A DNA stretch of 4,054 nucleotides from a virus (taxonomy: Duplodnaviria > Heunggongvirae > Uroviricota > Caudoviricetes): the IMG/VR virus record IMGVR_UViG_2579778968_000004; one strand, 5' to 3'. Of the stretch, positions 1 to 4,054 are shown piece by piece. Numbering within the stretch: the stretch's first letter is position 1; the number at the start of each line of letters is the position of its first letter. The position numbers and the translations under genes are program-made. Under the pieces are notes generated by a model, which saw only the letters and a program-made list of their open reading frames with translations, did no database searches and was not told the origin of the DNA.

Positions 1-249
1 ATTAGAGACTTTCAGCGTTGGCCTTGCACTGGCACCTTTGCCGTTCATCTCAAATCCACTCCCCTGAATGGGATAGGCCTGATACTGCCGACTCTGCCAG
101 GTGACAGACTCTCCTTTCTCGTTCTGCTCATTGCAGAAAAAGTAGCGATCCCCGCCTACCTCGGTCAGGTCGATTTCCCAGAGCACCACGCTGGCCGACT
201 GCTCCGCACGAATGCATTCATTCAGCGTTTCCTGTTGTATGTCCTGCAT
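1..249 (-). CDS. L: Minor tail protein L (lambda gpL family), N-terminal 83 codons only; gene continues beyond the window start
   Basis: Reverse-complement of 1..249 translates in frame from ATG (247..249) as [83 protein letters not shown] with no stop before the window edge. This is near-identical to the N-terminus of lambda gpL as I recall it (about 10 differences in 83 residues). Sits immediately downstream of M, as in lambda. Weak SD-like GGTGA a few nt upstream of the ATG. Confidence 0.9.
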   Translation of the reverse strand, partial: MQDIQQETLNECIRAEQSASVVLWEIDLTEVGGDRYFFCNEQNEKGESVTWQSRQYQAYPIQGSGFEMNGKGASARPTLKVSN

Positions 250-587
250 CAGATCACCACTTCGTCAAACTGACACGAAAAATCGGTATAGGTGATATGT
301 TCTGTCGCTGACCACGTTCGACACACCACTCTGATTTTTCTGTTAATACCCGGCGGGCGCCAAAAAAAAGATTTATAGCCTTCATGCCGGGCTAAAAATT
401 TTTCAAATGAATCACGTTCATTCGCCTCAACTTTGAAATCACAGGTGAAAACGCGCAGAGAATGATTAAGTCCATTTGGACTTCGTTGCTCATAACCATC
501 ACCAAATCTTACAGTTTTTATCGATGGTTTATTTTCTGTTTTCATTCCATCCTCTGGTAACCAGTGAAATTCTTCCGTATTAGCCAC
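249..587 (-). CDS. M: Minor tail protein M (lambda gpM family)
   Basis: Supplied ORF, 112 aa. Contains [16 protein letters not shown] (lambda gpM has VRFGDGYSQRAPAGLN from memory) and a similar C-terminus (FDEVVI vs FEQVVN). The first codon is GTG at 585..587, directly after an in-frame stop, so no upstream ATG is possible. An N-terminal F-x-W...GM...PS spacing shared with lambda gpM supports the GTG start over the internal ATG at 543..545. Stop TGA at 249..251. Confidence 0.85.
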
Positions 588-3500
588 TTAACATTCCCCC
601 ATCACGTCGCATATTTAACAGATTGCCCTGCACCCGCTGATCAACCATCCCCATAAGTGCTTTTATTGCCTGAGGGCCAATCTCTCCATTCTGGCCGTCA
701 TTTTGAATAGTGATTTGGTATACAGGGGCATAGGTAATATCTCCGCCTCCATTACCACTTTTACTATTAATAGCTCTGACACCAAGAGAACCATCGGAAG
801 TTCGTGTTAATGGCATAATGGCTTCCGGTCCAGCCTCACCAAAAACACCAGCCCCTTTTGCAAAAGCAAAAAATTGCGGGGAATCATAAATACCGTTCGA
901 ATACGTGCTCAATGACGGAGACTCATAAACACCGCCCTTTGCATTCGGAATAAATTTACTAATAGCACTCCCGATAGTTCCTAAAATCCCCCCAGAAGAA
1001 CTGTTACTAATGCTGTCGAAAATCCCAGTAATTGAAGCCTTTAATGCTATTCGACTAAGATCCGAAATCACGGAAGTAGCGAAAGAACGAAAATTTGCCT
1101 TGCCTGTCGTGACAAAATCACCCAGCGCATCGGTCATCCCATCAAACATCTGAGTCGTGGTTGATTTTATCTGCTCACTGATATCCTTAGTGTCATCCAG
1201 CCAGTTATTGAATCCCTGGGAGGCACCACTAACCCAGTCTCCTGCCTGAATATCGAGCTGCTCGTTTTTCTGTCTGACAATTTCTTTTTCCCGTTCCAGA
1301 GCATCATTCAGAGCCTGCATTTTCTCTTGAAAAACATGATCTGACATTCCACGGGATTTATCTGCATAGTCACGTTCAAGTTGCAGACGCTGATTGTTAT
1401 ATCCATGTTCAATCCGCAGTAATTCCTGCTGGCGTTGCTGATTTTTATCGCCAACCCCATAACCAGCAATCTGAATATCATACCCCTGCTGACGATTATC
1501 AATCGAAGCCTGCAATGAATCACGCCATGCTGTTATTTCGGCGGATTCCTTGATTAGCCTGTTATTTTTTTCAATCGCAACATTTTTCTCCATCAACGTG
1601 GTTATTTCTTCCCGGTGTAAGAGAAGCGATTTCTGATCCTGGGTTAATTTCGATGATGGTCGTGACTCTAGGTCGGCAATCCGCTGACGCCACTTAACCA
1701 GTTCCTGTTCAGAGGAACTTAATTTAACGGTCAACTCAGCTTGTGAACTTAGTAACGCATTCTGTTGATTCAGATGATCAATCATTCGTTGGGCTGCATC
1801 ATCAGAATAACCTTTCGCCTTTGGTTGCTTTGGATCTTTATAACGCTCATTTATTTGAGCGATAAGATTATTATATTCTTCCTTTGAATACTGATTCTTT
1901 AGCTTTTCCAGTTTTGCAAGTTCACTAGCTCTCTGCTGCTCCCGGGTCTGATATTGTTTTGAAAAGGCATCTGCTCTCTGTCTGAGTTCAATTCCTTCCT
2001 GTTGTCGCTTGTTGTAATCGTTTATTGATGAATTTAGTACGTCCTGAGCAATTTTTTCTGCTTGAAGTACGCCCAATTGCTGCTTTAATCGTGCCAGCCT
2101 TTTATTTTGAGCTCCGCCATCTCCAATGCCACCTAACCCGAAAACTCCGGGTCGGGTATTTTTTTCTATTTCATCAATTTGACGGAGAACATCTGAGATT
2201 TTTTGATCAAGGGAGGCCTCACGGCCAATATCCAGCATGGAATCCCATGCCCATTTTGCGGAGTCTGCGACAGCTTTCCATGCAGTCTCAAGATAACCAA
2301 GATTTTCTTTAATCTGGTTGGTGCGCTGGATCATTGAGGATGAGTATTCTTCTGTCGCAATGCGGGCGGCCTCCTGCTGGTTCCCTTCATCCTGTAGCGC
2401 CTTAATCTGGTTATAAGTCGCAAGTGTCAGAAAATGGTACTGATCATTAAGTTTTGATATGGCACTGACAGGATCCTTTGCAATTTCATTGAAGTCATTA
2501 ACCAGTTGTTCGGTTGATATTCCTGTTACTTCGCTCGTTTTTACTATCGCTGTCGTCACTTGCTCCAGCGAACTGCTCGCTACCTTTCCCGAACGCACAA
2601 GCTGATTTAATACTGCCGCCGCAGCACCAGTTGTCGAATCAGCCGCATTCCCGGCACGTTGAGCTATATCGCCCAATTGCCCGCTGGTTGTCCCCAACTG
2701 ATTTCCGGTAAGAATAAGAGATTTATTAAATTCGTCCTGCTCCTGAGAGCCTTTATAGTAAGCCAGTCCTAAGACCCCAACGGCTGCTGCGGCCAGGGTA
2801 AAAGGATTAATTAATCCCAGCACATAAGAACCTACACCTTTGATCGCCGGGCCAATCCCACCGAACATATCTTTTAGCTGGCCGCCCTGCTGCATTAACA
2901 CCATAAATGGCGACTGACCAGTGGACAACCCAACAACAATATCCGTCATTTGTGCAGGCAACATGCGCATAGCAAAAGCCGTTTGTTTTGCCGACATTCC
3001 GGTTTTGCTTAATTGTGATTGAGTAACCTCAAGCTCACTCCGCATAGCACGAAGTTTTCCAGAAAGCTCCTCATACATTTCAGGAGAAAGCATCCCCTTA
3101 GCTTTTGCTTCATTGAGCTGTTTCTGTTGTTCTACCAGACGATTAAAAGCAGTTCCGACAGGATCAAGTTGAGCAATCAGACGTTGCAAAGCAACAACCT
3201 GTTCATCATGCGCTTTTGCTGCTTCTCGCTCTGCCTGAGCCTCTCCGGTAAGCTCTCGCCGTGTTTCCTGTATTTTTCGGCTATAATTCTCAAACTGAGA
3301 ACCATTTATTTTCCCGGATGCAAACGCAGCATTAAGTTCATCATGCTGTTGTTCAAGATTTCTTAGCGCCGCAGCCAGAGGGTCGATCTTGTCCAGCATT
3401 CTTTGAAAGGCCTGAGCCTGCGCTTCCTGCTGGGCGGCAGCAAGTTTTCCGGCCTTCTCGGCTTCTCTCTGCGCTTGCGCAACCCCGCTCAATTCCTCTG

Positions 3501-3813
3501 TGGTTTCATTAAGTTTACGGACAAGAAATTCATATTCTTCTTTATCAATAAGCCCTTTATCGAAAAATTTCTTTAATTCAGAATAGCGTCGACCGACAGT
3601 ATCAATTGCGGCACCAACTGGATCAATAGCTGCTTTTAATTTTGCGAGCGCGTTCTTCTCATCTTCTGTTGCCTTAGTCACTTTCCCTGCGCTATTTGCA
3701 GCAGTTTCCCCAGCCTGCGTCATTTTGACTAATGAGGAGGTCAGATTGTCAGCATTATTTTTCGCTCCAGTGCTATCAATAATTATTGCGAGACGCGAGG
3801 TTTGCTCTGCCAT
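580..3813 (-). CDS. H: Tail length tape measure protein (lambda gpH family), 1077 aa
   Basis: Supplied 1077-aa ORF. ATG at 3811..3813 is directly preceded by an in-frame TAA and an AGGAG Shine-Dalgarno with a 9-nt spacer. [10 protein letters not shown]...[21 protein letters not shown] matches lambda gpH MRMLPAQFTD...GQSPWLILLQQGGQVKDSFGG (from memory), and the C-terminus [16 protein letters not shown]...RRDGGMLSG matches lambda NDGTNGQIGPAALKAV...MRDGGLFSG. The long Q/E/K/R-rich central region is typical of tape measure proteins. Followed by M and L as in lambda. Stop TAA at 580..582. Confidence 0.95.
2950..3627 (-). repeat. Three tandem in-frame coding repeats (about 73-80 codons each) forming the N-terminal region of the tape measure protein
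   Basis: Protein units start at residues 63 ([11 protein letters not shown]), 143 ([11 protein letters not shown]) and 216 ([11 protein letters not shown]). Each repeats the pattern (I/L)DP-x-x-x-A..., then G-x-(I/N/L)-x-x-x-(Y/F)-E, then K-(L/I)-x-E/A-x-x-x-EL-(S/T)-G. DNA-level identity between units is low (compare GGATCAAG at 3161, GGTCGATC at 3382, GATCAATAG at 3621), so these are diverged duplications rather than recent ones. Boundaries are approximate. Confidence 0.6.
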
Positions 3814-3828: not shown

Positions 3829-3858
3829 ACAACAAAAAACCCACCGCGAAGTGGGTTT
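3829..3858 (-). terminator. Candidate Rho-independent terminator (minus-strand orientation) directly upstream of the tape measure gene
   Basis: Minus strand reads AAACCCAC-UUCGCG-GUGGGUUU followed by UUUGUUGU: a perfect 8-bp stem (plus-strand 3837..3844 pairs with 3851..3858), 6-nt loop, then a U-rich tract. On the plus strand the hairpin is followed by CAGG rather than a T-tract, so a terminator reading works only for the minus strand. Strength and function cannot be judged from sequence alone. Confidence 0.45.
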
Positions 3859-3978
3859 CAGGCGACATAATAGTAGATATAGCGATTACGAGGCCACGCA
3901 ATGCTTTTCTCCAGGAGCATCATCGATTTAATTAAAGACACCATCACATCTCTGTAACAGAGTGTACGTAATTAACAA

Positions 3979-4054
3979 CTACACACACTGCTCGGCTTTG
4001 TTGAATAAATCAGATTTCGGGTAAGTCTCCCCCGTAGCGGGTTGTGTTTTCAGG
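3979..4054 (-). CDS. 3' end of an upstream minus-strand ORF running in from beyond the window (frame ambiguous; possibly a tail assembly chaperone by synteny only)
   Basis: Two minus-strand frames are open from the window edge: one reads ...PENTTRYGGDLPEI and stops at TGA (4010..4012), the other reads ...LKTQPATGETYPKSDLFNKAEQCV and stops at TAG (3979..3981). With only 14-24 codons visible I cannot tell which is real or name the product. In lambda the genes upstream of H are G and T. Confidence 0.3.
   Translation of the reverse strand, partial: LKTQPATGETYPKSDLFNKAEQCV

Follow-up and report, generated by a model that had tools for sequence, protein, structure and literature searches.

The window (the whole 4,054-nucleotide stretch of Caudoviricetes DNA that was analysed) holds an intact tape measure gene whose product carries, between a short leader and the conserved core, three tandem copies of a unit of ~72 residues that were duplicated long ago and have since diverged. 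The explanation we regard as the best, and as reasonably probable, is that this is an old three-copy module of the Rac-type lambda-family tape measure protein, which most likely lengthens the tail ruler at its head-proximal end. Since related phages carry from one to five copies of the unit, the three-unit N-terminus falls within the ordinary variation and is no peculiarity.

The tape measure gene and its repeat units

The gene spans positions 580..3813 (minus strand) as an uninterrupted ORF of 1077 aa, identified from the ORF listing, its Pfam and NCBIfam domains and its alignment with lambda gpH. It is preceded by an AGGAG ribosome-binding site, and its start codon is common to more than 90 homologues. 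Three Pfam domains were recovered on the same strand: the TMP_2 core (PF06791; aa 267-471, 2401..3015; 273.6 bits for a cut-off of 30.2, E 1.4e-81), TMP_4 (PF24622; aa 671-748, 1570..1803; 84.7 bits, above the Pfam cut-off) and Tape_meas_lam_C (PF09718; aa 858-932, 1018..1242; 91.4 bits for a cut-off of 23), while TIGR01541 covered aa 705-1040 with 218.4 bits (cut-off 104.75). Residues 270-1077 aligned to lambda gpH 57-850 (28% identity, E 5e-77), and the gpH structure was matched as well (PDB 8iyk_H, E 4e-70). By homology, the ORF encodes a tail tape measure protein of the lambda family (TMP_2 / Tape_meas_lam_C), and among the Rac-type lambdoid prophages of E. coli this allele of the gene is the usual one.

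Its surroundings are those of a tail gene cluster. Downstream (all on the minus strand, as annotated in near-identical phage records) lie the homologue of lambda gpM (tail tip assembly protein M; an ORF at 249..587) and the 5' part of the gpL homologue (tail tip assembly protein L; 1..249), which runs off the window. Upstream, 22 nt from the start codon, a terminator-like GC hairpin with a 10-pair stem and a T-run was found (3836..3859, minus strand), a feature that recurs in a relative (L002). In intact relatives the tape measure gene is preceded by a small ORF and a gene for a YdaY-type chaperone; by comparison with L002 (7780-7800), only the last five codons and the stop of the upstream gene (presumed to be a chaperone extension; 3979..3993, minus strand) are left in the window, cut off from the rest. 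The phage match ends at 3993, and the remaining 61 nt (3994..4054) are the terminus of an IS903B element (IS5 family), with 98-100% identity to IS903B ends in hundreds of records. As the element interrupts the upstream gene, this genome's copy may never build a tail.

The leader (aa 1-54; 3652..3813, minus strand), the counterpart of lambda gpH residues 1 to ~56, is common to relatives with one, three and four units; it gave no signal with the unit HMM and was modelled by AF2 with low confidence. It is followed on the same strand by unit 1 (aa 55-134; 3412..3651; 122 bits with the unit HMM), closing with EELSG and an Ala/Gln-rich linker, by unit 2 (aa 135-207; 3193..3411; 127 bits), closing with RELTG, and by unit 3 (aa 208 to ~275; 2989..3192; 103 bits), which closes with SELE and runs into TMP_2, overlapping the start of that domain at aa 267. 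Positions 2950-3627, for which the first-pass annotation had proposed a triplicated module upstream of the conserved MRMLPAQ core, correspond to residues 63-288, that is, from the first IDP through the end of MRMLPAQ (aa 282-288, inside TMP_2). Both the triplication and its placement (leader, units, core) were confirmed: the unit HMM retrieved exactly three strong copies and nothing comparable elsewhere in the protein, and the local alignment scores between units (122, 82 and 95) lay far above the means of composition-preserving shuffles (25-29; z = 17.8, 11.3 and 15.6), the observed score being reached in none of 2000 shuffles.

The units align for 56 columns without a gap, D-P and G staying in register, and their (I/L)DP motifs fall at residues 63, 143 and 216 (spacings of 80 and 73 residues). 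The pattern (I/L)DPxG...EL(S/T)G proposed at first pass proved approximate, as (I/L)DP occurs in all three units, while DPxG and EL(S/T)G are each found in two of them; the truly conserved positions are D10, P11 and G33, near-invariant over 71 diverse units. Between the three units identity amounts to 34-36% in amino acids and 44-50% in nucleotides, and the longest DNA word in common has 9 nt. TRF detected no tandem repeat in the window DNA, and alignment of the units at DNA level revealed no recent duplication; the units are thus anciently duplicated, diverged tandem copies. Searches of Pfam, NCBIfam and PHROGs yielded no model for the unit (only whole-protein PHROGs, a sub-threshold SHOCT match and spurious SMC matches), and a literature search found no earlier description of it.

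The protein is 1.26 times as long as lambda gpH (1077 vs 853 aa, as had been noted at first pass), and 213 aa of the 224-aa excess are already accounted for by the offset at the MRMLPAQ core, so the inserted units explain nearly all of it. The first-pass annotation had credited lambda gpH with a single unit of the (A)EPVGDLVVD type; this did not hold, as MAEPVGDLVVD aligns to the leader and not to an IDPVG unit, and a search of gpH residues 1-75 with two unit profiles and hhalign detected no unit (2.8 bits, 0.3% probability). Lambda gpH has zero copies between leader and core, and in mid-protein it has only a partial unit-like motif (412-445).

Tail length and the fold of the unit

Tape measure proteins are textbook molecular rulers, and repeat number is one known route by which tail length is tuned. 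Tail length shifts proportionally with deletions and duplications in the tape measure protein (PMC5099701; PMC3271669), and in lambda (32 rings, 42 Å rise) the C-terminus of gpH is located in the tail tip as a trimeric coiled coil (PMC10721106). Considering that the C-terminus would be anchored in the tip and that the tube would polymerise towards the N-terminus, the units would lengthen the head-proximal end. Calibration with lambda and phage T1 (tape measure of 957 aa, ~34 rings; PMC11945409) gave 26.7-28.1 residues per 42-Å ring. At this rate the 1077 residues would, if fully extended, span ~38-40 tube rings (~160-170 nm), compared with 32 in lambda, and fewer if hairpins persist; up to ~8 rings (~34-36 nm) would be owed to the three units, provided that they lie extended in the lumen of the tube. 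We infer that the longer tail proposed at first pass is a reasonable prediction. No EM or tail-length data were found in the literature for phages with this allele, the matching 'phage' records being prophage predictions.

The fold predicted for the unit makes this prediction less certain. With the 71-sequence unit alignment, AF2 modelled unit 2 as an antiparallel helical hairpin (pLDDT 88, rising to 96-98 around the turn); the single-sequence model of aa 1-320 had low confidence (pLDDT 60) and was used for secondary structure only. The unit is predicted to be all-helical with breaks at the conserved Gly, running as helix, Asp-Pro kink, helix, Gly turn and long helix over ~65-72 residues. A hairpin that persisted in the tube would add much less than 72 x 1.5 Å per unit.

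It is conceivable, though in our judgement unlikely, that the units fold on their own into antiparallel helical hairpins and serve mainly for something other than length, each adding about one ring or less; they could serve as chaperone docking sites, contact the head-proximal terminator or the DNA end, or act in the periplasm after ejection. Besides the confidence of the model and the near-invariance of D10, P11 and G33, this reading draws on structural neighbours retrieved by Foldseek (ESCRT-I and integrase coiled-coil hairpins, TM 0.66-0.72), on the sub-threshold resemblance to the SHOCT helix-turn-helix, and on phage T1, which has only ~2 rings more than lambda for 104 additional residues that include one unit, which hints weakly that residues at the N-terminus add less length than proportionality would give. 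However, the Foldseek E-values were not significant, a hairpin is what prediction yields by default wherever a Gly turn links two amphipathic helices, and the single-chain model ignores both the trimer and the narrow lumen of the tube. Furthermore, among relatives with the same leader the full-length protein grows by about one unit length per unit (946-972 aa with one unit, in Klebsiella; 1077-1124 aa with three; 1195 aa with four), and no compensating loss was seen elsewhere, which speaks for the units as added ruler length.

A role as docking sites is weakened further by the genes next to unit-bearing tape measures, which encode YdaY-type, lambda G-type, T1-type and other chaperones. This mixture of at least four unrelated types rules out a specific pairing between unit and chaperone. 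According to a review, gpG binds multiple regions of gpH rather than the N-terminus in particular (PMC5009743); neither this nor the variety of adjoining chaperones supports the earlier suggestion that chaperones engage the N-terminal region and that the duplication may multiply their binding units.

D-P and G are strictly conserved over hundreds of clusters, which suggests that the unit does more than space passively. We think it improbable that the D-P/G unit constitutes an undescribed family of autonomous helical hairpins that stay folded in the tail, in which case tape measure and tail length would be related non-proportionally and hairpin copy number would set some other property at the head-proximal end. 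If the hairpins do stay folded, copy number may tune chaperone loading, the pausing of polymerisation before terminator binding, or contact with the DNA end. Natural alleles with 0, 1, 3, 4 and 5 copies of this clearly delimited unit of ~72 residues occur in proteins that are homologous otherwise; this series could test whether all tape measure residues count equally towards tail length or folded hairpins count for less.

Copy number, prevalence and age

The unit profile matched 479 protein clusters (E<=1e-3) among 1.84 billion representatives, and the unit is widely used as a module in the tape measures of proteobacterial siphophages. Our census, drawn from the best 150 profile matches, covered 92 full-length proteins in which a TMP_2 core is present, namely the 1077-aa protein, lambda gpH and 90 cluster representatives with units. 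One copy before the core was the commonest state (54 proteins), followed by two (17), three (13), four (4) and five (2). Three copies are thus not exceptional; the copy-number variants among related prophages for which the first-pass annotation had recommended a search do exist, as relatives with the same leader carry one, three or four units, in register and differing by whole-unit steps. The unit has been gained and lost in such steps over long evolutionary times. A 505-aa, four-unit 'short tape measure' (L003-L005) was set aside as a deletion remnant with an out-of-frame tail.

The region was present in 1071 of 5426 complete E. coli genomes, K-12 included, and 1063 of these 1071 carried the three-unit region at >=80% coverage and >=90% identity. 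The K-12 gene ynaA, in the Rac prophage, matches window positions 2879-3813 at 99.9% identity and has all three units; as it keeps only the N-terminal ~342 residues (P0052), it is a truncated remnant of the three-unit allele. The unit thereby accounts for a stretch that had no annotation, residues 1-266, both in a very common prophage protein of E. coli and in K-12 YnaA.

Differences in copy number behind one leader might be taken as the mark of an active, recombination-prone tandem array that changes tail length on short timescales, a substrate for recombination having been suggested at first pass. Two rare alleles (P0023, P0026/27), which have lost 25 and 37 residues in frame within the region, could be cited for it, but the deletions end at 3-residue microhomologies and not at unit boundaries. 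We consider such an array very improbable, and the proposal largely refuted already: a DNA identity of 44-50%, with no run of identical bases longer than 9 and no repeat visible to TRF, together with a region intact in nearly all carrying E. coli genomes, argues that this is not a current recombination hotspot. No copy-number variant was found among the complete E. coli genomes, and the extra unit of the four-unit allele (unit B) had no DNA match in them, its identity to the nearest paralogue being 60% at DNA level; moreover, conserved orthologues exist for every unit position in both E. coli and Klebsiella. That the repeat only mirrors a biased, coiled-coil-like composition instead of a true duplication, as the richness of the region in A, E, Q, K and L and the spurious NCBIfam SMC matches over aa 18-281 might suggest, is refuted to the point of having virtually no probability by shuffled scores that never approach the observed ones, by 56 ungapped columns in register and by the recovery of the same unit in 479 clusters.

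Relation to known tape measure systems

Apart from the unit, nothing here departs from the ordinary: the gene is a known one in a normal allele, and the phenomenon in general is already established. The closest counterpart is the tape measure of Rac-type prophages, of which ynaA is the same gene; it is truncated in K-12, whereas here the 1077-aa ORF is intact and has the end of IS903B upstream. Lambda gpH (PDB 8iyk chain H) shows homology all the way from the MRMLPAQ core to its C-terminus, sharing TMP_2 and Tape_meas_lam_C, and likewise has a similar short leader (MAE, then a hydrophobic stretch) and gpM and gpL downstream in the same gene order, but it is 224 aa shorter and is without the unit between leader and core.

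Phage T1 gp38 (957 aa; PDB 9l9p chain B) has the same TMP_2-type core (MRMLPAQ at aa 209) and, in place of three units, a single clear one (aa 68-123), behind a different leader and beside other chaperone genes; a terminator-like hairpin likewise lies just upstream, where a terminator is annotated in T1 at the same relative place. Other Drexlerviridae tape measures count, with gp38, among the closest known systems.

At the level of the unit itself, the central motif (L..L......G.I...EY....L) resembles the SHOCT helix-turn-helix (PF09851), of which a sub-threshold match was seen at aa 79-101, within unit 1. However, SHOCT is a C-terminal domain of ~28 residues and the unit an internal repeat of 72; with a best score of 21.3 bits for a gathering threshold of 27, and any match in just three of 12 units, identification of the unit as a SHOCT domain was rejected.

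The tape measures of TP901-1 and of mycobacteriophages contain 11- or 18-residue Trp/Phe repeats, which vary in number and are tied to the tuning of tail length (PMC5099701; PMC3271669). As in those proteins, significant internal tandem repeats are found here and relatives differ by whole units. The unit described here, in contrast, is 65-80 residues long, bears a D-P ... G ... Y/F signature, is predicted to form a helix-turn-helix and stands at the N-terminus, before the core, and the 11/18-residue Trp/Phe periodicity was not seen. Judging by sequence, the D-P/G unit represents a different repeat family.

The tape measure gene and its prophage setting

The tape measure ORF (580..3813, minus strand) is preceded by an AGGAG ribosome-binding site and encodes a 1077-aa protein, whose start codon is common to more than 90 homologues, all opening with M[AST]EQTSRLAI. 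Pfam recovered TMP_2 (aa 267-471, 273.6 bits), TMP_4 (aa 671-748) and Tape_meas_lam_C (aa 858-932), and NCBIfam recovered TIGR01541 (aa 705-1040), while residues 270-1077 aligned with residues 57-850 of gpH, the 853-aa tape measure protein of phage lambda (BLASTP; 28% identity, E 5e-77), a match reproduced with chain 8iyk_H of the lambda tail structure. Its sequence places the product among the tail tape measure proteins of the lambda family. Downstream lie a lambda gpM homologue (249..587, minus strand) and the start of gpL. The gpM homologue matched no NCBIfam model. Translation could begin either from a GTG at 587 (112 aa, overlapping the tape measure stop) or from the ATG at 545 chosen in phage annotations (98 aa).

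A terminator-like hairpin (3836-3859, minus strand; 10-pair stem and T-run) precedes the start codon of the tape measure by 22 nt and is likewise conserved in L002, a near-identical phage record. In phage T1, the corresponding place just ahead of the tape measure gene holds an annotated rho-independent terminator (L013 1509-1528). The last bases of the window (3994-4054) are the terminal 61 nt of IS903B (IS5-family). The element interrupts the upstream neighbour of the tape measure gene, of which only the last five codons and the stop remain on the tape measure side (by comparison with L002 7780-7800). Among 5426 complete E. coli genomes this junction is absent, every match starting only at query base 62. 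Given that IS903B interrupts the upstream gene and that the junction is unseen in complete genomes, this prophage copy may be defective in tail assembly.

The gene itself has existing database entries and is extremely widespread in E. coli. Its DNA is 98-100% identical to E. coli prophage tape measure genes, and the N-terminal 964 bases (annotated as ynaA, a truncated Rac prophage remnant, in K-12 strains) were found in 1071 of the 5426 complete genomes; the near-identical records labelled 'phage' are predicted prophages of clinical isolates. The E. coli copies are often truncated or split (L002 4383-7616; P0005, P0010 and other homologous proteins), with products of 717 aa (28 contigs), 836 aa, 829 aa and 342 aa (K-12 YnaA), as well as two CDSs in ON470595. 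This points to extensive decay of this prophage's tail module, whereas the tape measure ORF in the window is intact.

A three-unit helical repeat between leader and core

The first-pass annotation had proposed that a tripled N-terminal module occupies window positions 2950-3627 (residues 63-288, from the first IDP through the end of MRMLPAQ), and a search for internal repeats in the 1077-aa protein upheld it with significance. Between the leader (aa 1-54) and the TMP_2 core we delineated three units of about 72 residues, spanning aa 55-134, 135-207 and 208 to about 275, with the (I/L)DP motif at residues 63, 143 and 216, respectively. Smith-Waterman alignments between units scored 122, 82 and 95, whereas shuffles averaged 25-29 (z = 17.8, 11.3 and 15.6), and the observed score was reached by none of 2000 shuffles. 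A three-unit HMM recovered exactly three strong copies (103-127 bits) and only noise elsewhere in the protein, while in an alignment of twelve units taken from this protein and its close relatives, D10, P11 and G33 were invariant and the first 56 columns gap-free. Taken together, these results show that the repeat is real and no effect of composition. The units share 34-36% amino acid and 44-50% nucleotide identity, the longest DNA word identical between any two is 9 nt, and Tandem Repeats Finder reported no DNA tandem repeats; on such divergence the repeat is evidently old.

No model in Pfam-A or NCBIfam covers aa 1-266, and PHROGs holds whole-protein families only. SHOCT matches to the units remained sub-threshold (21.3 bits vs a cut-off of 27, in 3 of the 12 units), and SMC matches in this region were rejected as spurious. 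Single-sequence AlphaFold modelling of aa 1-320 gave an all-helical prediction of low confidence (pLDDT 60), with helix breaks at 86-90, 166-170 and 239-243, the positions of the conserved Gly. With 71 diverse units aligned, unit 2 was predicted at pLDDT 88 (96-98 around the turn) as helix 2-9, helix 11-32, a four-residue turn and helix 37-71. Its Foldseek neighbours are antiparallel helical hairpins (ESCRT-I headpiece, serine-integrase coiled coil; TM 0.66-0.72), with E-values that are not significant, as a fold of this simplicity would lead one to expect. The new element is modest: a conserved D-P/G helical module is defined for which there is no existing family model.

The single '(A)EPVGDLVVD-type' unit that the first-pass annotation ascribed to lambda did not survive comparison, as residues 1-75 of gpH contain no unit (2.8 bits with the unit profile; hhalign probability 0.3%) and lambda's MAEPVGDLVVDLSLD is instead the counterpart of the leader that lies upstream of the units in the 1077-aa protein. 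Lambda gpH therefore consists of leader and core with no units between them, where the 1077-aa protein has three; the alignment opens at aa 270 of the latter, facing gpH aa 57. Since MRMLPAQ is located at residue 282 here and at residue 69 in lambda, the N-terminal insert supplies 213 of the 224 extra residues, in line with the initial view that the repeat is the source of the added length.

The sole unit-like signal in gpH is partial and lies mid-protein (residues 412-445, L001 2776-2877; LNKALKDGKILQADYNTLMAA; 18.7 bits with a 71-unit profile), covering the unit's central helix-Gly-turn-helix segment. A comparable weak stretch occurs at aa 627-657 of the 1077-aa protein, and this motif may occur more generally in tape measures.

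Copy number among relatives and stability of the repeat

Relatives sharing the same leader differ in unit number, and their units align cleanly in register. Many prophages of Klebsiella and Enterobacter carry one unit (946-972 aa; e.g., P0143, P0146, P0152), while three are found in E. coli and Klebsiella (1077-1141 aa) and four in P0030, P0048 and P0122 (1195 aa), so the anticipated copy-number variants do exist. Unit positions have their own orthologues conserved across hosts (types A, C and D), type E being the distinct unit of one-unit alleles and type B the extra unit of four-unit alleles. Type B is nearest to type C (52% amino-acid, 60% nucleotide identity), which fits an old duplication of the type C unit.

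Across 1.84 billion cluster representatives, the twelve-unit profile found 479 proteins at E<=1e-3 and 84 at the stricter E<=1e-10, almost all of them the size of a tape measure. Units ahead of the core were counted in 92 full-length proteins whose TMP_2 core could be recognised: 90 representatives bearing units, the 1077-aa protein and lambda gpH. As the sample consists of the best 150 unit matches, multi-copy proteins are over-represented and unit-less ones left out; 54 proteins had one unit, 17 had two, 13 three, 4 four and 2 five. Up to ten units occur in tape measures of other types. T1 gp38 (957 aa, PDB 9l9p_B) has one clear unit (68-123), and the examined Drexlerviridae, Casadabanvirus and Vibrio phage tape measures likewise have one. 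Three copies thus represent a well-populated state of a variable architecture, and the standard allele in E. coli, rather than a rarity.

A 505-aa four-unit tape measure ORF was found on at least eight metagenomic contigs (e.g., L003 6001-7518, L004 1278-2795, L005 652-2169), directly followed by a gpJ-like gene. We rejected it as a short tape measure: its last ~40 residues are out-of-frame and Cys/Arg/Phe-rich, hence it is a recurrent deletion remnant devoid of the C-terminal tape measure half and the M/L/K/I genes.

The suggestion that the repeat is recombination-prone is contradicted in E. coli, where 1063 of the 1071 matching complete genomes have the region at a coverage of 80% or more and an identity of 90% or more, DNA similarity among units is very low (44-50%), and the extra-unit (type B) DNA of the four-unit allele had no match in any complete genome. 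Two rare E. coli alleles (P0023; P0026 and P0027; homologous to window 2950-3200) have lost 25 and 37 residues in frame, either within unit 3 or where units 2 and 3 meet. These deletions end at three-residue microhomologies (AMR...AMR, AKA...AKA) and not at unit boundaries; they may stem from slippage or from assembly errors. Units have been gained and lost, but over long timescales.

Chaperones, tail length and known tape measure repeats

The N-terminus of gpH had been put forward as the site engaged by the G and G-T chaperones; a review describes gpG binding to multiple gpH regions and does not single out the N-terminus (PMC5009743). As the chaperones adjoining unit-bearing tape measures are of several types (YdaY-type, a lambda G homologue in phi458, T1-type and others), a specific unit-chaperone pairing is not indicated; generic chaperone binding to the added helical segments is possible.

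In lambda, 32 gpV rings, each rising about 42 Å, make up the tube around a gpH oligomer that sets its length, and the tail tip contains the gpH C-terminus as a trimeric coiled coil (PMC10721106); T1, with a 957-aa tape measure, has about 34 rings of the same rise (PMC11945409). Deletions and duplications in the TP901-1 tape measure alter tail length proportionally, and repeats are regarded as natural facilitators of such changes (PMC5099701); variable repeat-unit numbers are described in mycobacteriophage tape measures (PMC3271669). From this geometry and these precedents we infer that the units lengthen the ruler, presumably at its head-proximal end. At 26.7-28.1 residues per ring, 1077 residues would predict 38-40 rings (a tube of about 160-170 nm), to which aa 55-281 (227 residues) would contribute about 8 rings (34-36 nm), making a longer tail than that of lambda plausible. 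A real caveat is that hairpins persisting in the lumen would let each unit add roughly one ring instead of nearly three, for which T1 offers a weak hint, as its tape measure exceeds that of lambda by 104 residues, one unit among them, and its tube by only about two rings.

The natural series of 0-5 copies could test whether all tape measure residues count equally toward tail length. Tandem repeats and homorepeats occur together in 23,469 of 45,500 tape measure proteins, about half (PMC13585406), and the tripled module belongs with the known copy-number-variable repeats of these proteins.
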